From Candidatus Saccharimonadales bacterium (GTDB lineage: Bacteria; Patescibacteriota; Saccharimonadia; Saccharimonadales; UBA4665): DNA of 64,000 bases. A program made the position numbers and the translations under genes. This document shows, piece after piece, positions 14,076-57,528 of this stretch. Location: contig DASTXH010000017.1 of NCBI GenBank assembly GCA_035758575.1, positions 22,945 to 86,944 of the forward strand. The letters run 5' to 3'. The notes under the pieces are model-generated. The model was not told the origin of the DNA, did not search any database, and saw only the letters and a program-made list of their open reading frames with translations. The first letter of the stretch is position 1; every line of letters begins with the position of its first letter.

Positions 14076-14408
14076 TTAGCTCAGACATTCTATAAGATTA
14101 TCCAGTAATGTAGAAAACTCAACAACTTCTACGGCGCTGAAAACACCGGACTCGCTGGCCGCCAAGACACCCTGTCGTACCGTATCAGCATAGGCATGAG
14201 CCGTTTTAGCGTGCAGTTGCTGGTCGTGCCGGTTCTCGGCATATTCATAATCCCGCGCCTCAAGCCGCAGGTCGATGACCTGCATTTTAAGTGACGACGC
14301 AATGTCGCGCGGGCGGGGCGCCAGTTCCGCCATATCTATGCCGGACAGCGCCCGTAGCATGTAATTTTCCAGTTGCCGAGCAATGCCGTACGGTGATGAA
14401 GATTGCAT
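14076..14408 (-). CDS. Hypothetical protein
   Basis: 110-aa ORF tightly spaced downstream of rpsR. No recognisable motif. Confidence 0.45.
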   Translation of the reverse strand: MQSSSPYGIARQLENYMLRALSGIDMAELAPRPRDIASSLKMQVIDLRLEARDYEYAENRHDQQLHAKTAHAYADTVRQGVLAASESGVFSAVEVVEFSTLLDNLIECLS

Positions 14409-14450
14409 ATCCTCTATTGTACAGGCCTGCCAGCGCCTTTTGGTAGCTGC

Positions 14451-14654
14451 TTAGTTATTAGCCACGAATGCCAAGAGACCGATATGGCGAGCGCGCTTGA
14501 TAGCACGCGCCAAGTGGCGCTGCTGGCTCTCGGTCAGACCCGTCTTCTTGCGGGTCTCAATTTGACCATATACGTTTACATAGCGCTGCAAGGTCTTGAA
14601 GTCCTTGTAGTCAAAATATGCAACATCTGTCCGTGATTTGAAAATCTTTGCCAT
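14451..14654 (-). CDS. rpsR: 30S ribosomal protein S18
   Basis: 67 aa containing ...DYKDFKTLQRYVNVYGQIETRKKTGLTESQQRHLARAIKRARHIGLL, the typical S18 core. Confidence 0.95.
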   Translation of the reverse strand: MAKIFKSRTDVAYFDYKDFKTLQRYVNVYGQIETRKKTGLTESQQRHLARAIKRARHIGLLAFVANN

Positions 14655-14904
14655 AGTAGATAAACGGAGACAAACCCTTGCAGGGTTTTTCTCGTCGGAG
14701 CTGGCGAAATAAATTCGCCTCCGCCTTTCAGGCGGACCGCTCCTGCTCTTTTCCCCGTTTCTTCTCCTTCCTTCAAAAAATATTTAAGTGCCTTGCCTCC
14801 GACGCGCTCCGGGAAGAGCAGCGACCGGTTCGCCTGAAAGGCGAATTCGGATTTACTCCGAAAGGGAGCGATGAGAAACCCGCTTTAGCGGGTGTCTCAT
14901 ATGG
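14655..14904 (-). other. 250-nt helix-dense spacer between ssb and rpsR (candidate structured RNA element or foldback insertion)
   Basis: No ORF. Six local perfect hairpins are present (for example 14703-14719, 14720-14736, 14829-14845, 14871-14900). Two crossing 8-bp long-range helices occur (14693-14700:14797-14804 and 14743-14750:14814-14821). Segments 14720-14736 and 14829-14845 are near-complementary over 17 nt. Confidence 0.4.
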
Positions 14905-15363
14905 CTAAAATGGGATCTCGTCGAGATTGATCGAGCCGTCAACATCATTGATGACGGTATCGTCGTTCGACGCTTTGCCCTTTGGCTGTGATGAGGCACC
15001 ACCACCATTGCCGCCACCCTCACCACCGCGACCATCTACGAAGTTGAAATCCTCAACGATTACTTCGACCTTCGAACGCTTTTGGCCGCTTTCTTTATCT
15101 TCCCAGCTCCGCTGGTCAAGGCGTCCGCTTACCAATATGGCGCGACCCTTGCCCAGGTACTGGGCGATAATTTCACCTGGTTTACCCCATGCCACACAGT
15201 CGATATAGCTGACGCTCTCCTGCTGTGTGCCATCTTGCCCGCGCCATGTACGGTTTACTGCCAGCGAAAAGCTGGTAACGCTTTGGCCGCTTGGCGTGGT
15301 ACGCGTCTCTGGGTCCCTGGTAAGGTTGCCCATGAGAATCACCTTGTTAAATCCCTTTGCCAT
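14905..15363 (-). CDS. ssb: Single-stranded DNA-binding protein
   Basis: 152 aa with an OB-fold N-terminus (FNKVILMGNLTRDPETR), a Gly-rich linker and an acidic tip ending DEIPF. Confidence 0.95.
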   Translation of the reverse strand: MAKGFNKVILMGNLTRDPETRTTPSGQSVTSFSLAVNRTWRGQDGTQQESVSYIDCVAWGKPGEIIAQYLGKGRAILVSGRLDQRSWEDKESGQKRSKVEVIVEDFNFVDGRGGEGGGNGGGASSQPKGKASNDDTVINDVDGSINLDEIPF

Positions 15364-24466: not shown

Positions 24467-26608
24467 TTACTTTTTACCTTCAAGCTCTCGAGCAGCCGCC
24501 TTCATGCTGAGCTGCAACCGTCCGCGATCGTCGATAGCAAGTAACTTCACCGTCACTTTGTCACCCTCATGCACGACGTCGCTTGGTTTGTTCACGCGCT
24601 CTTCGCTCAGTTCGCTGACGTGTACCAGGCCTTCTTTACCCGGCAGAATTTCGACGAATGCACCAAATTCTAACACGCTTACGACACGGCAGTCGTAATA
24701 TATTTTACCCACTTCAGGCACAGCCGTCAGCCGACGGATATAAGCGATAGCGCCGTCGATAGACTCCTTGTTTGGGCTGGCAATCAGCACGGTGCCGTCG
24801 TCCTTGATGTCGATCTCGGCACCTGTTTCGGCGATAATCTTATTGATGGTTTCGCCGCCCTTGCCGATGACCTCGCGGATTTTGTCTGGGCTGATCTGGA
24901 TAGCCTCTACGCGTGGGGCGTACGGGCTCATCTCGCTGCGTGGGCCTGCCAGCGTCTCAAGCATATGCGCCAGAATGAAGGCACGGCCTTCCTTCCCCTG
25001 CATGATTGCCTGCTTCAATGTTTCTACTGGTAAGCCGTGTACTTTCATGTCCATCTGCAGTGCGGTAATACCCTCGCTAGTACCGGCAACCTTGAAGTCC
25101 ATATCACCGGCAAAATCTTCGGCGTCAGCTATGTCGCTCAGTACATATGCCTTGTCACCTTCCAGCATTAACCCCATAGCGATGCCGCTCACCGGACGCT
25201 TCAGCGGTACACCCGCGTCCATAAGCGCCAAACAGCTGGAACACGTTGCAGCCATGCTGGTACTGCCGTTTTGGCTCATAATTTCGGTGACTGAACGGAT
25301 AGTGTATGGAAACTCGGCTTCATCGGGAATTACTGGCAACAGTGCACGCTCCGCCAGGTAGCCATGGCCGATTTCGCGGCGGCCGGGGCTGCCCAGACGT
25401 TTCACTTCACCAACGGTGTAGCCCGGCGCATTGTAGTGGTGCATATAGCGGCGTTCGCCCGACTTCTCCATGGTGTCGACCAGCTGCACATACGACAGCG
25501 GTGCCAACGTAACAATGTTCAGACCCTGAGTAACGCCGCGGGTAAACAGGCTTGAGCCGTGCGCGCGCGGCAAAACGCCAACTTCGCTGGACAACGGACG
25601 TATTTCGGTAAGCTGGCGGCCATCAGGGCGGATATTCTCTTCTACGATACCTTTGCGCACATCTTTGTGGATAGCCATCTGAAAAGCGTCTTCGAATTCA
25701 CGCTTGACCTGTGCAAAACCATCTTCGCCAAGTTCTTCCGTAAAATGAGCGTGCATGCTGTCGCGCAAGACCTTCACCATCGCATTGCGCTCTGGGTACG
25801 GTGCGCGCAAGTCCGCGCCCAACTTACCTTCCAGCCAGGTTTCTACGCGCTGTTGGATGTCGCTATCCGGCAGCATCAGCTCATATGGCAATGGGGTCAC
25901 GCCTACCTTTTCGACCAATTCCTTCTGCAGGGCAATTGCGGGCTGCATAGCCTGAAAAGCATATTCCAGCGCGGCCACCACCTGATCTTCGCTGACTTCT
26001 TTGGCGCCAGCTTCCACCATAGTAATGGCGTGCTCGGTACCGGCGACTACAAGGTCGAGCGTACCGGCAGCCAATTCGTCTGCCGACAGGAACGCCTGTG
26101 GCTTGCCGTCTACCAGGCCAACGCGAAGGCCTGCAACCGGACCGTCGAACGGCGCACCGGTCAGCATAAATGCTGCGCTCATGGCAATCATGGCAATGAC
26201 GTCGGGGCGGAAGGCTGGGTCCATACTGAGCACCGTGGCCACACCCTGTACTTCATGCCGATAGCCCTTGGGCCACAGCGGCCGGATGGGGCGATCGATG
26301 AGGCGGCCGATAAGCACTGCTTCGTCGGATGGTTTGCCTTCACGCTTGATGAAGCGGCTGCCGCTGATCTTGCCGGCGGCATAAAAGCGTTCTTCGTAGT
26401 CGATACTCAGCGGAAAATAATCCAATCCGCTCACCTGGTTTTCGCTCATCATAGCGGTGCCTAGGACGACCGTGTCGCCGTAGGTAGCAAGGACTGAAGC
26501 CGTGGTGCGGAAGCCCACGCGGCCAACCTCTAGGGTTAGCGTGCGGCCGCACAGCTCAGTCGAAACGCGAATAATTTTTTTGCCGTATGGGTTAATGGTT
26601 TGTCCCAT
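24467..26608 (-). CDS. pnp: Polyribonucleotide nucleotidyltransferase (PNPase)
   Basis: 713 aa with two RNase PH domains plus KH and S1 domains (…GKIYYDCRVVSVLEFGAFVEILPGKEGLVHVSEL). Confidence 0.95.
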   Translation of the reverse strand: MGQTINPYGKKIIRVSTELCGRTLTLEVGRVGFRTTASVLATYGDTVVLGTAMMSENQVSGLDYFPLSIDYEERFYAAGKISGSRFIKREGKPSDEAVLIGRLIDRPIRPLWPKGYRHEVQGVATVLSMDPAFRPDVIAMIAMSAAFMLTGAPFDGPVAGLRVGLVDGKPQAFLSADELAAGTLDLVVAGTEHAITMVEAGAKEVSEDQVVAALEYAFQAMQPAIALQKELVEKVGVTPLPYELMLPDSDIQQRVETWLEGKLGADLRAPYPERNAMVKVLRDSMHAHFTEELGEDGFAQVKREFEDAFQMAIHKDVRKGIVEENIRPDGRQLTEIRPLSSEVGVLPRAHGSSLFTRGVTQGLNIVTLAPLSYVQLVDTMEKSGERRYMHHYNAPGYTVGEVKRLGSPGRREIGHGYLAERALLPVIPDEAEFPYTIRSVTEIMSQNGSTSMAATCSSCLALMDAGVPLKRPVSGIAMGLMLEGDKAYVLSDIADAEDFAGDMDFKVAGTSEGITALQMDMKVHGLPVETLKQAIMQGKEGRAFILAHMLETLAGPRSEMSPYAPRVEAIQISPDKIREVIGKGGETINKIIAETGAEIDIKDDGTVLIASPNKESIDGAIAYIRRLTAVPEVGKIYYDCRVVSVLEFGAFVEILPGKEGLVHVSELSEERVNKPSDVVHEGDKVTVKLLAIDDRGRLQLSMKAAARELEGKK

Positions 26609-26766
26609 GGGTAATGTTTGACCTTTCTACCGCGGGTGGCTTGACCGGCATGGTTCACACACAGGGAGCAAATATCCAGCTGCCTTGTGCGAAAAAGCTG
26701 GTATATCTGGTGCTCTGTAAGCGAACGCCGGTAAGCCTCTAGCGTGCTGTTAATGTGCACAAGCGT

Positions 26767-26790
26767 GCTTTCTCGATGACTCGAGAAAGC
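26767..26790 (-). terminator. Perfect 10-bp hairpin just after rpsO (rpsO attenuator / pnp leader processing-site candidate)
   Basis: GCTTTCTCGA-gtca-TCGAGAAAGC lies 13 nt after the rpsO stop. There is no U-tract, so partial termination or RNase III-type processing is more likely than a strong terminator. Confidence 0.35.
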
Positions 26791-26802
26791 TGGTCTATGC
26801 AC

Positions 26803-27069
26803 TTAGCGGCGGATGCCGAGCTTCTGGATGAGGCTCAGGTATGCGCTACTGTCGTTTTTGGCAACGAATGCCAACAGGCGGCGGCGGCGACCGACCAGCT
26901 GCAGCAAGCCGCGGCGGGCTGCAAAGTCTTTGCTGTGTACCTTCAGGTGCTCAGTAAGTTCTTTGATGCGCTCGGTGGCTACGGCGACCTGTGTGGCAGC
27001 GCTACCGGTATCGGTTTTGTGTGCCTGCACGCTAGCGATGGCGGGCTGTTTTTTCTCACTTGTAATCAT
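26803..27069 (-). CDS. rpsO: 30S ribosomal protein S15
   Basis: 88 aa containing ...TGSAATQVAVATERIKELTEHLKVHSKDFAARRGLLQLVGRRRRLL. Confidence 0.95.
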   Translation of the reverse strand: MITSEKKQPAIASVQAHKTDTGSAATQVAVATERIKELTEHLKVHSKDFAARRGLLQLVGRRRRLLAFVAKNDSSAYLSLIQKLGIRR

Positions 27070-27116
27070 ACTCGAGTATTTTACCAGATGGGCTATCAGA
27101 TTACAAGCAGCTCACT

Positions 27117-29009
27117 CTAGAAATACGATGGCGGTGTCATGGGTGGAGGCACCGGCGGCGGGCTGTTTGGCGCGATATTTTGCTGGGCGGGCGCGGCACT
27201 TTGCTGAGGCATCGCAAATGGTGGCGGCGTCGGCTGGTTGTTCACGGATGGCTGGGGTATAGCGGGCATAGACGCTAAGTGCGGCTGCTGTACCAGATTG
27301 CCATCAGCATCAACGCTAATAGGCGCCGAGGCAGCAGGTACGGATGGCGGCGCGATGGTAGCGGCGTCAGTATGAGGATGCAGGCCATCGCCAAGCGGGC
27401 TGGCGTTCAGCGACTGCAACGGCTCAAACCGGGAGCCAGCCGAAGCCAAGGCATCCATCACCTGGTCACGCGCGGCCGTAATGTCACGGGCTGGCGCCAC
27501 AGGCGTACCGACGTGTGGGCTATGTACTGATTCTTCAATCTGGCTCAGCGTCTGGCTACTGGGTGGCGTACTGGGTGCGGGCATACTAGGCATCGTTGGC
27601 ATGGCTGGTGCGGACATAGACGGCGGCATGGGTGCCATAGGGGCCGGCAACGGCACGTCTACCTGAGGCACCGATGGCTGTACAACCGGGGGTTCGGGAA
27701 TGGCAGGCTGCGCTGGCGGCATCATGGGTGCATCGCGTTGCAACAGCGGCATAGCTGGTTCGCTGGCAGGCATGGCCGTAGGTGCGGACGGTTGCGGCAC
27801 AGTCGGTGCTTCGGCTGGGTGCACCTCAGGACGGTCTACTAGGTACGAACGGCTAGCGGCTGGGGCGTCTTCGAACTCACCGGTAAACGGCGTTTCACGA
27901 AGTGACGATCCGTCGGTAGCAGCCTGCGCCGGACTTGGCGTTGGCAGCATTGGCCGATTCGTCGTAATAATCTTGGGGAGCTCTTGCTCTTGTGGTTTGA
28001 TAACCTGCGATGGTTCTGGTGCTGGCACCGCCTCTTCCTCTGCCTCGGGTTTTGGTGCCGGTTGAGCCTTTGGTTCAGGCGCCTCCAGTGGACGCTTCTC
28101 TTCCGGCGACTCTTTACCGTGATCTATTTCGAGCGTACCATCGTCGCTTACCCTGATGGGCGCGATGCCGCTGGGCTGGCTATCGTCGTTGTTACTTGCC
28201 GGAGCGTCATTGACCGGCGCCGACACTTCATTTGCGTGCTGTGCGGCGGCCTGCAGCGATGTTGCTACCAGTTGCTGGTTGGCGCCAGCAGTCATAAGCT
28301 CACCCGCCACGGCCATGGTACGCGGGGTAGTTTTGTCGTTGCTGAAACGTTCGGTTTCGGCAACAACACCGGTAAGAAGCGCAGTAGCGATCTGGCTGTC
28401 TAACGCATCCTTTTGCAAATCAGCCACCAGCTCGGCTACCATTTCAGAGATGGAGCTGGCGCCGATTTCCTGCCATGCGAGCGCGCCAAGGTTGCCGTTG
28501 GGCGTGTTGTTGACACTAATAATAGTGGCATCGTGCAGGATGCGGCCGTGAACGGTAATCGCCTGGTCAAGCTCTTGCTGCTCGTGAGCACCTAGTGCCA
28601 CCACAACATCGACGTTAAAATCACCCTGACTGAACTCTAGGTCGGCCTGACTTAGGCTGGTTTTGTACGGTGTGATAAAAATGCGCACGACCGTATCTTC
28701 TACCTTGTAGCGCAGCTTGTCGGCTTTGGATTTATCGAGCGCGATGATGAAATCGCGCAAGGAATCCGGCGTTTGTTCGATGGTATCCTCGGGTTTCAGG
28801 AACTCCATGGCACTGGGCACCTTACCACTGAAGACGGCGGCGGCGTGCTTGTCCATTTTGTCGAGCACCAAAGATAAACCTATGCAGGCGCTCAAGAGGT
28901 CAACGGTTGGGTCATTCCGTACGGTAACGAGGATATTATTCGCTTGCCTGAGCCGCTCAACGATTTGTTTCTTGATGTCATCCATAGTTTTTATTTTAAC
29001 CTTTACCAT
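27117..29009 (-). CDS. DHH-family (NrnA-like) domain protein with degenerate catalytic motifs and a long Pro/Ala-rich C-terminal region
   Basis: 630 aa. The N-terminal ~200 aa is colinear with NrnA-type DHH domains, but the motifs read TVRNDPTVD, ALGA and VNN instead of HxxPDxD, DT and DHH. The C-terminal ~400 aa is Pro-rich low complexity. Confidence 0.7.
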   Translation of the reverse strand: MVKVKIKTMDDIKKQIVERLRQANNILVTVRNDPTVDLLSACIGLSLVLDKMDKHAAAVFSGKVPSAMEFLKPEDTIEQTPDSLRDFIIALDKSKADKLRYKVEDTVVRIFITPYKTSLSQADLEFSQGDFNVDVVVALGAHEQQELDQAITVHGRILHDATIISVNNTPNGNLGALAWQEIGASSISEMVAELVADLQKDALDSQIATALLTGVVAETERFSNDKTTPRTMAVAGELMTAGANQQLVATSLQAAAQHANEVSAPVNDAPASNNDDSQPSGIAPIRVSDDGTLEIDHGKESPEEKRPLEAPEPKAQPAPKPEAEEEAVPAPEPSQVIKPQEQELPKIITTNRPMLPTPSPAQAATDGSSLRETPFTGEFEDAPAASRSYLVDRPEVHPAEAPTVPQPSAPTAMPASEPAMPLLQRDAPMMPPAQPAIPEPPVVQPSVPQVDVPLPAPMAPMPPSMSAPAMPTMPSMPAPSTPPSSQTLSQIEESVHSPHVGTPVAPARDITAARDQVMDALASAGSRFEPLQSLNASPLGDGLHPHTDAATIAPPSVPAASAPISVDADGNLVQQPHLASMPAIPQPSVNNQPTPPPFAMPQQSAAPAQQNIAPNSPPPVPPPMTPPSYF

Positions 29010-29138: not shown

Positions 29139-29495
29139 ATGCCCATCATCAAGTCAGCCAAAAAGCGCGTTCGTGTTGCCACCAAGGCCGCCATACGCAA
29201 CAGCAAAACCAAGCGTGCCCTGAAGAGCGCTCTGAAGATCTTTACGCGCAAGAGCGATGCCGCTACACACAGCAGCGCCCAAAGCGCCCTGGACAGGGCC
29301 GTCAAAAAGGGCGTGATGCATAAGAACAAGGCTGCCCGCATGAAGAAACAGATGGCTGCCACCGCCAAAGCCGCTGGCACCGCCAGCACAAAGGCTGCCG
29401 CCAAGCCAAAGGCCGCTACTGCTAAGGCGCCCGCCAAGAAAGCCGCACCGAAGAAAGCTGTTGCTAAGAAGCCGGCTGCTAAGAAAAAGGCCTAA
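29139..29495 (+). CDS. rpsT: 30S ribosomal protein S20 with Lys/Ala/Pro-rich C-terminal tail
   Basis: 118 aa. MPIIKSAKKRVRVATKAAIRNSKTKRALKSALK is the S20 core. GAGGAAG Shine-Dalgarno. Tail is AKPKAATAKAPAKKAAPKKAVAKKPAAKKKA. Confidence 0.95.
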   Translation: MPIIKSAKKRVRVATKAAIRNSKTKRALKSALKIFTRKSDAATHSSAQSALDRAVKKGVMHKNKAARMKKQMAATAKAAGTASTKAAAKPKAATAKAPAKKAAPKKAVAKKPAAKKKA

Positions 29496-29511
29496 ATAAC
29501 CCCCCTTCACC

Positions 29512-29538
29512 AAAACCGCCCTCCCGGGCGGTTTTTTT
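29512..29538 (+). terminator. Rho-independent terminator of rpsT (usable in both directions)
   Basis: aaaaCCGCCC-tccc-GGGCGGttttttt: a 6-bp GC stem with 7 T downstream and 4 A upstream. Confidence 0.85.
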
Positions 29539-29556
29539 ATTCCCTAAACGCTATCA

Positions 29557-30155
29557 CTGTTTCTTCTGCCTTGTTCCCTCTATCAAGAATCGAGCCGCCT
29601 TCTTTGCTACGCATACAAACACTAACAACACCTTCCGCTGTGCCTAACAGGCACAGCGTGCTACGCTAGGCCGAGCTCCCCCGTCCTCAGGCACCTGTTG
29701 TAAAGCCTGACAACCAGCCCAACGACTCGTCACTATCGTTCCTCAGGCAGAGTTGGGCTGCCCCTTCCAGGGGAAGTTGTCAGTTCCACCAACAGGTTCG
29801 CCGGGTACGCTCCTCCGCATGGCCGAGGCTGCAAGTGCAGCGGTAGTTTGGTGGTGTGCAGTAATAAACTACCAATACAGCTATGGTCAGTAGCAAGGGT
29901 TGGGCTACGCGGTGCACTGGTGGTTATACGGCATGCGGAGCCCTCACGGTGGAGCTGTTGTGGCAGCGACAATTTCCTTCGGCGGCTCGGCCTGTCTGAG
30001 GCGCTAACTCGCCGAGTCCCGAGCCGATTGTCGCTGTGACAACTGCAACCAGAGAGGTGGAGCTAGCCTTGATCTTTTGGATACTTTTGCATCAAGAGAA
30101 AAGTATCTGGTCGGTTCCTGACAGCAGGAACAAGGCAACAAACACAGAAGAACAG
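29557..30155. ncRNA. Candidate large (~600 nt) structured non-coding RNA of unknown class (alternative: foldback MITE)
   Basis: No credible ORF. The termini pair (29557-29577 with 30127-30155). At least ten nested perfect 8-10-bp helices are present (coordinates in findings). Flanked by convergent genes. The transcribed strand is not resolved. Confidence 0.5.
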
Positions 30156-30201
30156 AAACGGTTGCCGAAGGTACAGCGGAACACGGTAAAACAAAAAAGG
30201 A

Positions 30202-31125
30202 CTAAACGTCCGCTAGACGCAGAAGATAATTTTGCAGGGCTTCGTCTACATCAATCCGCTCGCGCTTGGAGCGCGCGTCAATGACAAGCAAATCAGCCAC
30301 AAGCCGTCTTAGATGATTCATATTCAAGCGATTGGCAATGGGCTGTGCTTTGCGCGCGACAAACGGACTCAGCCTGGCGGCAGCAGCAACATCCTGCGCC
30401 GAACGGCCACCTGCGGCCTTCAGCAGCGCCAACACCCGTAGCTGCCAGGTAAGCATAGCAATGATCTGGGCGGTATCTACCTTTTGCGCGCGTTGGTCGG
30501 CATATAAGCTTAGTACCCTGGCAGTATTGCCCATAAAAGCTGCTTCGAGCAACTCAAAAATACTACCTTGTGGGGTTTGGTCAGTCAGCAGCTCGATAGT
30601 CTCCCGCGTGACAGACGGGCTATACAGCAACAGTTTCTCCAGTTCAAGCGCCAACAATTGTTGCCGGGCGCCGATACGCCCCATCAGATAACGCGCATCG
30701 GCCAGCGAAATACTTCCGCCGGCTGCTTTCGCAGTCGCTACCAGCCACGGTGCCATACCGGCTTCGTCGGGTTCGGTAAAATCGCGGACCTCGGCCAGCT
30801 TCTTAAGCGACTTATAGTAACTTCCCCGTTTGTCAGGCTTTGGTTCAACGATTAAAACATCGGTAGTATCGGGCAGTTCTTTGAACAATTGTTCGGCACG
30901 CTCGGTAAATTGTTTGTTCGCGCTAGGCGTGCGTAGCACCACCAGCTTGCGGTCGGCCAAAAACGGGACGCTCTGCAGACTTTCCTGCAGGCGCTCAAAA
31001 CTGGCTGTTTCGCCGTCCAGACGCTCCAGAGCCATATCGCCATGCGCTGACACAAACGCGGCTACCAGCGAGTCCAATTCACGTTGCAATAAAAAGCTGT
31101 TTTCGCCGGTCAAAACGGTGATCAT
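30202..31125 (-). CDS. holA: DNA polymerase III delta subunit
   Basis: Start is taken at ATG 31125 (MITVLTGENSFLLQRELDSL...), which forms an ATGA overlap with the mutM stop. The ORF-track N-terminal extension lies inside mutM. Confidence 0.8.
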   Translation of the reverse strand: MITVLTGENSFLLQRELDSLVAAFVSAHGDMALERLDGETASFERLQESLQSVPFLADRKLVVLRTPSANKQFTERAEQLFKELPDTTDVLIVEPKPDKRGSYYKSLKKLAEVRDFTEPDEAGMAPWLVATAKAAGGSISLADARYLMGRIGARQQLLALELEKLLLYSPSVTRETIELLTDQTPQGSIFELLEAAFMGNTARVLSLYADQRAQKVDTAQIIAMLTWQLRVLALLKAAGGRSAQDVAAAARLSPFVARKAQPIANRLNMNHLRRLVADLLVIDARSKRERIDVDEALQNYLLRLADV

Positions 31126-54402: not shown

Positions 54403-54475
54403 ATCTATAGTGTACCTCTAGCATGCTCTGATGCAAAGCATAGCCACTTTGCTTTCTACGCTAAATAATATCCAA

Positions 54476-54504
54476 CATCGTCCTGAATTCACTCCAGGAC
54501 GATG
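54476..54504 (-). terminator. groEL-distal hairpin terminator candidate
   Basis: CATCGTCCTG-9 nt-CAGGACGATG is followed by UUGGAUAUUAUUU on the reverse strand. It is the third of three hairpins after groEL. Confidence 0.4.
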
Positions 54505-54594
54505 CTGACTTTTTCGGGGAGAGCAGCCCGAGCAAATGTATTCCATTTGCCCGGCGCGATGAGAGGGGGGCATGCCCCCCCCCTCTCATGCGGC

Positions 54595-57361: not shown

Positions 57362-57392
57362 AAAAATCTCCCTCGGGATTCGAGGGAGATTT
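57362..57392 (-). terminator. Intrinsic terminator of leader copy 1
   Basis: Reverse strand AUCUCCCUCG-aaucc-CGAGGGAGAU followed by UUUUUG. It ends about 20 nt before ATG 57345. Confidence 0.7.
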
Positions 57393-57435
57393 GTAGTGTT
57401 GTTCCTTATTTCGTGATGCGTTTTTTTACGCTACG

Positions 57436-57492
57436 CTACAATCTCCCTCTTGCTTGAGGAAAATGACCATGTGGTCGAGAATGTATTGGCAT
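57436..57492 (-). CDS. Candidate 18-aa leader peptide MPIHSRPHGHFPQARGRL (copy 1)
   Basis: ATG at 57492 and TAG at 57436-57438 inside antiterminator arm A. The only two substitutions against copy 2 are synonymous. No Shine-Dalgarno seen. An alternative overlapping 24-aa frame exists. Confidence 0.3.
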   Translation of the reverse strand: MPIHSRPHGHFPQARGRL

Positions 57493-57528
57493 AAAGACAT
57501 CGTTATATGCGCTCCCTGGTTTAAGTAA

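Follow-up and report, generated by a model that had tools for sequence, protein, structure and literature searches.

A palindromic noncoding element in the rpsT-holA spacer of a soil Saccharimonadales genome

Genomes of Saccharibacteria comprise roughly 1 Mb and their spacers are very short, so a noncoding stretch of 700 nt needs explaining. Such a stretch lies between the convergent genes rpsT and holA on contig DASTXH010000017.1, of which 64,000 nt were analyzed (this whole stretch is referred to as the window, and coordinates are those of the window unless another contig is named). The window belongs to a metagenome-assembled genome (MAG) of a soil Saccharimonadales bacterium, and the relatives of its holA gene are found in Saccharimonadales (Saccharibacteria/TM7). 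A previous reading made from the sequence alone had proposed a large structured noncoding RNA of unknown class at this position. What, then, occupies this spacer? Analysis of the locus revealed a self-complementary element of about 480 nt with a homologue at a different locus of a related species. The region is neither a known RNA nor a broadly conserved new RNA gene. [quoted passage not shown]

Self-complementarity and anatomy of the element

The spacer between the stop codons of rpsT and holA comprises positions 29496-30201 (706 nt) and is free of genes, as had been claimed. The longest open reading frame (ORF) starting inside it has at most 79 aa, the longest stop-free frames have 111 and 109 codons, and a concatenated six-frame query matched none of 5.8 billion proteins. 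A decayed protein gene was rejected because the reading frames are not preserved relative to the homologue described below, from which the region differs by insertions and deletions of 1, 30, 1, 3, 1, 1, 2 and 1, 2, 3, 2, 37, 1 nt that are not confined to multiples of three.

Perfect Watson-Crick inverted repeats are far more frequent in the region than expected. Counted as maximal repeats, 17 of at least 8 bp were found versus 3.15±1.77 (maximum, 9) in 500 dinucleotide shuffles, and 9 of at least 9 bp versus 0.78±0.90 (maximum, 4); the two 661-nt tiles of the window that are richest in such repeats are the two overlapping the region. The predicted minimum free energy (MFE) of the region is -267.1 kcal/mol on the plus strand (z = -6.5) and -262.4 kcal/mol on the minus strand (z = -4.0; 100 shuffles). 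The excess of perfect helices noted by the sequence-only reading is therefore real, and every helix that it listed was recovered with minor corrections. Helix 29557-29568/30145-30155 contains one bulged T, the terminal helix adjoining it extends over 11 bp (29567-29577/30127-30137), the stem of the hairpin at 29636 has 10 bp (29636-29645/29649-29658), and the mini-hairpin given as ccUUCGgg is a C(UUCG)G motif at 29977-29982. The helices had also been described as mutually compatible, which they are not, since several repeats compete for the same bases. A GC-corrected sliding-window scan revealed two other segments, 14191-15350 and 26401-27400, that score equal to or above the region. Nested perfect helices and a strong folding score are not by themselves indicators of an RNA gene.

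Within the region, the stretch that is homologous to metagenome contigs L093 and L105 consists of hairpin D, the closing helices J1/J2, three hairpin domains, and hairpin A:

29633-30110, no strand assigned: conserved noncoding element of about 480 nt, a palindrome of palindromes, delimited by homology to L093/L105
29636-29658, no strand assigned: hairpin D, 10-bp stem (GCTGTGCC...GGCACAGC)
29668-29679, no strand assigned: 5' half of closing helices J1/J2, pairing with 30059-30069; invariant between the two homologues
29682-29809, no strand assigned: domain 1, a long hairpin of two inverted arm modules of about 55 nt
29813-29940, no strand assigned: domain 2, a central palindrome with basal helix 29813-29821/29932-29940, which has a conserved core
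29943-30054, no strand assigned: domain 3, a long hairpin with the same pair of arm modules as domain 1; alternative rod pairing with domain 1
30080-30107, no strand assigned: hairpin A, 9-bp stem (GATACTTTT...AAAAGTATC), common to relatives without the element

The element resembles its own reverse complement throughout its length (nhmmer E values: window, 3.2e-19; L093, 5.7e-24). The score of its alignment to the reverse complement was 84 in the window, versus 32.6±6.2 for shuffled sequences, and 170 in L093. One consensus of about 55 nt accommodates all four arms of domains 1 and 3, in alternating orientation, in both species, and the core helices are perfect Watson-Crick helices without G-U pairs on both strands. 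These three features favor the interpretation as a palindromic repeat. Folded alone, the element reached z scores of -6.4 on the plus strand and -4.6 on the minus strand. Domain 1 is built from helices 29693-29700/29790-29797, 29707-29714/29776-29783, and 29715-29723/29752-29760 with a side hairpin at 29761-29773, and domain 1 of L105 folded by itself yielded the same architecture. The apex of domain 2 is variable, the L105 version being 37 nt shorter. Two conformers were predicted for the entire element: three local hairpins form the MFE structure in the window, and a rod in which domain 1 pairs with domain 3 forms the MFE structure in L093. The motifs GCCGAG/CTCGGC and GACAA/TTGTC recur in both orientations, and complementary segments exceed what a single fold can use. 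The element sits in the loop of hairpin A, where it is bounded by an imperfect direct repeat of 7 to 9 nt (CTTCTTTGC at 29601-29609 and TACTTTTGC at 30083-30091). In relatives, hairpin D precedes a T-rich tract, which adjoins holA in L082 and lies 72 nt 3' of atpC in L105; the L105 copy of hairpin D scored as terminator-like.

A homologue downstream of atpC and the orthologous spacers of relatives

Scanning of JGI metagenome contigs with the 20-mer CTGACAACCAGCCCAACGAC returned one contig, L093, the first 569 nt of which are homologous to window positions 29557-30110 (blastn, 73% over 455 nt). Over the element, 349 of 432 aligned positions are identical (80.8%). This sole homologue begins 9 nt 3' of the atpC stop codon at the end of an atpG-atpD-atpC operon, and thus at another locus than in the window, as expected for a dispersed element. 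The atpC-located element was found in contigs L093 and L103 to L109. In the complete loci, L105 to L109, an ORF-free spacer of 676 to 683 nt separates atpC from a convergent gene. Both known sites of the element (rpsT/holA and atpC/next gene) are therefore positioned between convergent genes.

The orthologous rpsT/holA spacer was compared in four relatives of the window species, ordered here by identity of HolA:

L082/L083: holA identity 89%, rpsT/holA spacer 239 nt
L086: holA identity 78%, rpsT/holA spacer 205 nt
L089: holA identity 76%, rpsT/holA spacer 257 nt
L001: holA identity 71%, rpsT/holA spacer 212 nt

In all four, the central stretch of about 480 nt is absent. What their spacers have in common with the window is limited to the rpsT terminator and the holA-side modules A, B, C, and D; hairpin X occurs additionally in L082 and L086. 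Removal of positions 29610-30091 from the window spacer leaves a sequence that aligns collinearly with the L001 spacer at 67% identity, which again favors the reading as an element that comes and goes. In L001, modules B'-A-B form a palindrome centered on A, and the left flank of the window element (29557-29609) is the same B' side. The long terminal helix of the sequence-only reading (29557-29577 with 30127-30155) exists, then, but it is part of an older scaffold palindrome that is present in L001 without the element. The left arm, which forms perfect helices of 8 and 11 bp, is homologous both to this L001 palindrome and to the sequence just 3' of atpC in L093/L105. On the right side, the pairing of hairpin B (GTTCYTG...CARGAAC) is kept in L082 through a C-G to T-A change. 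The scaffold, the terminators, and the flanking genes are arranged as follows:

29139-29495, plus strand: rpsT, ribosomal protein S20 (118 aa, Lys/Ala-rich C-terminal tail); an ORF with orthologues carrying PF01649
29512-29535, no strand assigned: predicted intrinsic terminator hairpin of rpsT, a 10-bp stem followed by T7 on the plus strand
29557-29609, no strand assigned: left scaffold arm, made up of modules C' and B' with the 5' arm of A'; it repeats 30080-30155 in inverted orientation
29610-29632, no strand assigned: junction of about 23 nt
30111-30160, no strand assigned: right arm of the scaffold, with hairpin B (30114-30131) and motif C (30145-30155, AGAAGAACAG)
30161-30182, minus strand: candidate holA terminator, a remnant of the 3' arm of hairpin D forming a weak hairpin followed by a T-rich tract
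30202-31125, minus strand: holA, DNA polymerase III delta subunit (307 aa; PF06144, PF21694)

The rpsT terminator is kept in L082, L086, L089, and L001, and an A-run 5' of its hairpin makes it potentially bidirectional. Positions 30169-30181 complement 29633-29645 over 13 nt with one G-T pair, and L085 carries the perfect complement. The identities given to the two flanking genes by the sequence-only reading were borne out by the S20 orthologues and by HolA, which is 100% identical to the MAG protein HEU4966239.1 encoded on a 95-kb contig; the window RpsT protein was recovered exactly on Logan contigs L090 to L092.

The order holA, rpsT, and DHH-family gene is kept in 80 Saccharimonadales genomes. 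The length of the holA-rpsT spacer varies across these genomes between 0 and 1859 nt, and most spacers have 0 to 65 nt and contain essentially one bidirectional terminator hairpin. Long spacers elsewhere harbor unrelated ORFs (up to 451 aa) or unrelated long palindromes, again in keeping with a dispersed element. Because the lengths and contents vary so widely, the site is a variable hot spot. The element is not a conserved gene at this locus, since it is absent from close relatives and most Saccharimonadales have a terminator only. The sequence-only reading had named absence in close relatives and many near-identical copies in the genome as observations that would speak against it; the four relatives do lack the central stretch of about 480 nt, and many copies were not found within the 64 kb.

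The contigs with the atpC-located element share their JGI samples of origin with the 89% holA relative (3300005327, 3300009551), and their X module is identical to that of L082. The two probably represent one sister species. In this sister species, the long element is thus located at atpC and only the short form at rpsT/holA. Its two spacers have AAGCCACTTACTTTTGC exactly in common, and A plus X' is 82% identical over 49 nt. At the "empty" rpsT/holA site, AAGCCACT-TACTTTTGC-loop-GCAAAAGTA-TCAG-X' is continuous; at the "filled" atpC site, the same order is interrupted after TACTTTTGC by 465 nt ending in TACTTTTCT. The imperfect repeats of 7 to 9 nt that flank the L105 element (TACTTTTGC/TACTTTTCT) could be a target-site duplication, but a deletion between repeats would give the same picture.

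The atpC locus differs among the species as well. It lacks the element in the 78% and 76% holA species, and the left end of an element is present there in the 87% holA species. In the window species, X-A' at atpC is reversed relative to the sister species, and the contigs end at this position. Within the sister species, the same element sequence occurs with two distinct right flanks (L105:1533-2287 and L107:1447-1848). This difference is a strain-level rearrangement directly at the element end, after hairpin X'. Reversal and exchange of flanks both agree with a dispersed repeat, and three species carry modules of the element at two loci in each genome.

Comparison with neutral sites revealed that the element is better preserved between the two species than these sites are. 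Identity at four-fold degenerate sites is 0.64 in holA, 0.61 in rpsT, 0.56 in the DHH gene, 0.60 in atpD, and 0.49 in atpC. The junction and the outer flanks are not alignable between the homologues, and conserved blocks inside the element reach 29 nt. Given an identity of 0.81, unalignable flanks, and clustered substitutions, the element is under constraint or else postdates the split of the two species.

Base pairing in some stems has been retained along with the sequence. In a MAFFT alignment, 90.7% of the cells in helices of the type listed by the sequence-only reading pair, and 20 homologue cells are unpaired. Four pairs carry double changes in the fixed alignment, a number that 18 of 500 shuffles reach, for two distinct sequences only. 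The basal stem of domain 3 (29964-29973/30027-30036) reads AGCGACAAT/ATTGTCGCT in the window and TTGTACAAC/GTTGTACAA in L105, and after re-registering, 5 of 9 pairs are changed on both sides. Helix H1 persists with its register shifted, the apical pair of hairpin D is changed from T-A to C-G in L105, and pairing in H7 and H3b is also kept through double changes. Each L105 domain folded separately adopted the same architecture as in the window. These results indicate that hairpin formation is maintained, by selection or by template switching (PMC8794818).

Two observations on gene content at these loci were made in passing. The MAG of the window (locus tags VFT53_) contains two atpC genes, 93% identical and on separate contigs (HEU4966532.1, HEU4966900.1), one being of the window-species type and the other of the type of the 87% holA sister species (P0242, P0243); the bin gives the impression of combining two related species. 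The two right flanks in the sister species carry a gene for a 209-aa surface-like protein or an orthologue of the 342-aa gene found after atpC in L095/L099.

Searches against known families and weighing of the explanations

Searches of the 64-kb window against Rfam 15 revealed no match at the gathering threshold. This check included the OLE, ROOL, GOLLD, HEARO, raiA, RNase P, tmRNA, and 6S models, and the earlier statement that the region belongs to no known class is thus supported. In E-value mode, positions 29300-30400 gave only subthreshold terminator-like matches at 29435-29555 and a 12-bit proV match, and the homologue (L105:900-1700) gave matches of at most 17 bits to eukaryotic or viral families only. 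ARAGORN detected no tRNA or tmRNA, so the whole window is without a tRNA, a tmRNA, or an Rfam family at the gathering threshold. A phage or plasmid origin was rejected, as blastn searches of both collections were empty except for one 41-nt match at chance level; two conserved motifs of the element were not present in the viral contigs searched. No reverse transcriptase, nuclease, or integrase gene adjoins the element. Group II introns, retrons, omega RNAs, integron attC sites, and single-stranded-DNA origins were considered, and none had an Rfam match. A tandem repeat of about 152 nt, at which direct repeat D3 hinted, was found neither by TRF nor by forced alignment. High-copy REP-like hairpins were discarded, as neither the window nor about 100 loci contain further copies of D, A, X, B, or the core. 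An invertible segment between the 13-nt repeats 29633-29645 and 30169-30181 was dropped, as the positions of the contig ends do not fit. The structure that RNAalifold derived from the two sequences was mixed and cannot be trusted.

The features expected of an autonomous RNA gene were not seen. A simple consensus scan detected no sigma-70-like promoter in either homologue, which is weak negative evidence that agrees with a DNA repeat. Likewise, no terminator belonging to the element itself and no consistently strand-specific fold were found. The element lies between the predicted rpsT terminator and the candidate holA terminator and, in L105, 3' of hairpin D, and its modules occur in both orientations relative to the flanking genes. 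The L105 element folds equally well on both strands (-233.1 kcal/mol on plus and -233.2 kcal/mol on minus), again as expected of a DNA repeat. The weak preference for the plus strand that had been proposed is therefore inconsistent, being visible in the window and not in the homologue.

Taken as a MITE-, REPIN-, or BIME-like element, the locus could be explained as follows. Two long hairpins (domains 1 and 3, with four arm modules) surround a central palindrome and are capped by hairpins D and A, and this unit is lodged in the loop of an older, smaller B'-A-B palindrome between the terminators of rpsT and, putatively, holA. The element and its modules X, A, B, C, and D would constitute a low-copy family in a narrow clade of soil Saccharimonadales, occupying at least two convergent-gene spacers, rpsT/holA and atpC/next gene. 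Gain, loss, or exchange may take place at the direct repeat of 7 to 9 nt in the arm of hairpin A, by either of two routes: insertion into a hairpin loop, in the manner of insertion sequence (IS) elements with REP hairpins as their targets, or loss of the sequence between the repeats by deletion. The element would act as a foldback repeat at the DNA level whose arms coevolve by hairpin selection or template switching. Its main effect may be that read-through transcripts from either side fold into stable hairpins that block further read-through and 3' decay. In agreement with this reading, the element encloses no transposase or other ORF, is present or absent at orthologous sites and occurs at different sites, and consists of alternating short palindromic units that form hairpins in both species.

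Several observations weigh against this interpretation. Only one copy is present in the 64 kb, and neither the remainder of the window nor about 100 other loci yielded the modules again, so a copy number typical of MITEs or REPs was not seen. No transposase for the element was identified, a negative that does not extend to a gene for a REP-associated tyrosine transposase (RAYT), which was not searched for. Although the element is a quasi-palindrome as a whole, the ends adjoining the direct repeat do not form a pair of inverted repeats: the sequences just inside the repeat (TACGCATACAAAC... and ...CTTGATCTTTTGGA) are not complementary. The junction at 29610-29632 is not conserved between the homologues. 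The GC content is about 56%, and the element is thus not AT-rich. The window element folds 19 kcal/mol better on the plus strand than on the minus strand. Finally, identity is 0.81 in the element versus 49 to 64% at four-fold sites, and the substitutions are clustered in blocks (variance test, P < 0.0005); block-wise conservation of this type is at least as compatible with a molecule under functional constraint as with a mobile copy in decay.

The last two points lead to the possibility of a new, lineage-restricted large structured RNA of about 480 nt, with three domains closed by J1/J2, probably transcribed from the plus strand and present at one or two loci per genome. The very strong predicted structure, the 80.8% identity compared with about 60% at neutral sites, and the three-domain architecture recovered from the singly folded homologue domains would all be expected of such an RNA. 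The same applies to the double changes that keep pairing (5 of 9 in the basal domain 3 stem, along with H7, H3b, and the apex of D), to the variable apex of domain 2, which resembles many peripheral RNA domains, to the plus-strand advantage of the window element, and to a change at 30172 that is G-U compatible on the plus strand. In conflict with it are the lack of a promoter and terminator of its own between the predicted terminators of the flanking genes, a global palindromy that makes the helices perfect on both strands, and a homologue without strand preference. In addition, the rod conformer competes and is the MFE structure in L093, the modules occur in both orientations relative to the flanking genes, the element is missing at the orthologous site of close relatives and occupies another locus in the sister species, and the two-sequence covariation is weak (see above for the shuffled counts). 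The proposal of a large structured noncoding RNA thus stands as far as a noncoding, self-complementary sequence with a homologue conserved above neutral level and no family match is concerned, and is not supported by the nonconserved locus, the palindromy, and the missing promoter; as a whole, we consider it doubtful, although it deserves to be kept in mind. About equally doubtful is a bolder variant, a functional nucleic acid machine of a new class confined to this clade of soil Saccharibacteria and kept by selection at 81% identity where neutral sites show about 60%, either an RNA that switches between a cloverleaf-like and a rod form or a palindrome active as single-stranded DNA that relocates itself between convergent-gene spacers.

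Other explanations dispense with an RNA product. A selected cis-acting barrier (a bidirectional superterminator, an RNA-stabilizing 3' structure, a cruciform, or a protein-binding site, with spread being secondary) would account for the location of both known sites between convergent genes, for the T-rich tracts after hairpin D in L105 and L082 with the terminator-like score in L105, for the equal strength of the L105 structure on both strands, and for conservation above neutral. Most Saccharimonadales, though, manage with a single 10-bp terminator hairpin of 40 to 65 nt at this place, and close relatives without the element show no visible replacement, so we regard a barrier as unlikely. Marginally less likely still is a passive hairpin-rich spacer, grown by local inverted duplication and template switching, without mobility or a selected role. 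The left arm 29557-29609 indeed repeats neighboring older sequence in inverted form, GCCGAG/CTCGGC, GACAA/TTGTC, and similar short motifs occur both ways and complementary segments are in surplus, perfect Watson-Crick stems are expected from template switching (PMC8794818), and perfect hairpins also abound in other spacers, both in this genome and in relatives. Neutral local growth would, on the other hand, not yield a homologous 480-nt element at a different locus of another species, nor 80.8% identity versus 49 to 64% at four-fold sites while the flanking junctions are unalignable. A chimeric or fold-back misassembly of the MAG contig was considered because no independent contig spans the whole region and nine Logan contigs stop inside the spacers. 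It is highly improbable: L090 (100% identical), L091, and L092 cover 29496-29662, L081 (97%) covers 30067-30201, and the interior 29666-30110 is collinear with independent JGI and ENA contigs of the sister species.

The contig ends themselves follow a pattern. All nine Logan contigs (k = 31) of three related species end inside one of the two spacers, L081, L085, L090, L091, and L092 at rpsT/holA and L094, L100, L101, and L102 at atpC. The breaks often fall within or just 3' of hairpins D or A; contigs from Megahit, JGI, and ENA traverse the spacers. The breaks were rejected as evidence of a multicopy repeat, since the two loci of the sister species, both fully known, share no 31-mer that would explain a break at D. 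Hairpin-related loss of coverage is a possible cause.

Neighboring features and comparison with known systems

Several features of the surroundings were recorded alongside the element. The DHH-family protein (27117-29009, minus strand) has a Pro/Ala-rich, low-complexity C-terminal half of about 380 aa, and the Lys/Ala-rich C-terminal extension of S20 amounts to about 40 aa. In the 76% relative, an rve-family integrase gene (PF00665; L089:283-1068) is located 5' of fpg/holA, where L081, L085, and L086 carry a HAD-hydrolase gene and an ORF of 147 to 149 aa. The unrelated long perfect palindromes in the holA-rpsT spacer of other genomes include those of L060 (25-bp perfect arms), L047, and L074.

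Structured spacers were also detected elsewhere in the window. The 250-nt spacer 14655-14904, between ssb (14905-15363, minus strand) and rpsR (14451-14654, minus strand, 67 aa), contains nested perfect inverted repeats such as TTCGCCTCCGCCTTTCAGGCGG... with ...CGCCTGAAAGGCGAA; segment 14409-14904 has fold z scores of -5.2 on minus and -7.2 on plus, and the spacer revealed neither an Rfam match nor similarity to the rpsT/holA element. The 192-nt spacer 54403-54594 contains four perfect hairpins, one stem having long G/C runs (GAGAGGGGGGGGGCATGCCCCCCTCTC), and reaches the strongest z score of the window, -9.1 on minus. A 12-bp perfect hairpin (AAATCTCCCTCG...CGAGGGAGATTT) lies in 57364-57528 (z = -5.7), and the pnp-rpsO spacer 26609-26754 (z = -4.7 on minus) may represent a pnp leader hairpin.

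If the rpsT/holA element is a palindromic repeat, its family would be the first of this kind found described for Saccharibacteria; a literature search for MITEs in this group found none. Such a repeat would, moreover, be a marker for strain-level rearrangement and for places where metagenome assembly fails and thereby bear on MAG quality. Should the element instead be transcribed as a structured RNA, it would constitute a new class of large RNA in an episymbiotic lineage whose noncoding RNA repertoire is essentially unexplored.

Comparison with the large ornate RNAs OLE, GOLLD, ROOL, HEARO, and raiA revealed a common size range, a multidomain fold, a strong z score, and a patchy distribution, and some stems are kept by double changes in the element as in those RNAs. 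Unlike them, the element has no Rfam match and no consistent strand preference, and it lacks its own promoter and terminator; palindromic as a whole, it is confined to one narrow clade in which its locus is not conserved. Hairpins formed by template switching (PMC8794818; inverted-repeat conservation in Proteobacteria, PMC5941160) resemble the element in their long perfect stems, in the "compensatory" replacement of whole stems, and in the inverted copy of neighboring sequence. Template switching explains the perfect stems, but neither the second locus of a 480-nt unit nor conservation above neutral.

The closest parallels are found among dispersed repeats. In common with MITEs and small palindromic elements (ERIC, Correia/NEMIS, RPE, and QMITE; PMC10969869, PMC3184786), the element is intergenic, lacks ORFs, and forms a very stable stem-loop; it is present or absent at orthologous sites and occurs at other loci in related genomes, and a direct repeat of 7 to 9 nt marks its boundaries, with rearranged flanks adjoining. 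It differs from them in being larger (about 480 nt) and GC-rich, with one copy per 64 kb and two known loci, in ending at a direct repeat instead of mutual inverted repeats, in having no known cognate transposase, and in being conserved above neutral sites in a block pattern. REPs, REPINs, and BIMEs (PMC3116915, PMC2817692, PMC3333891) have units of 20 to 40 nt in hundreds of copies, compared with units of about 55 nt in few copies here. As in these repeats, alternating palindromic units are present in the element, inverted pairs of which form hairpins, and the site lies between convergent genes adjoining their terminators. The arrangement of a long element in the loop of a smaller hairpin corresponds to that of IS1397-type elements in REPs (PMC1525189).

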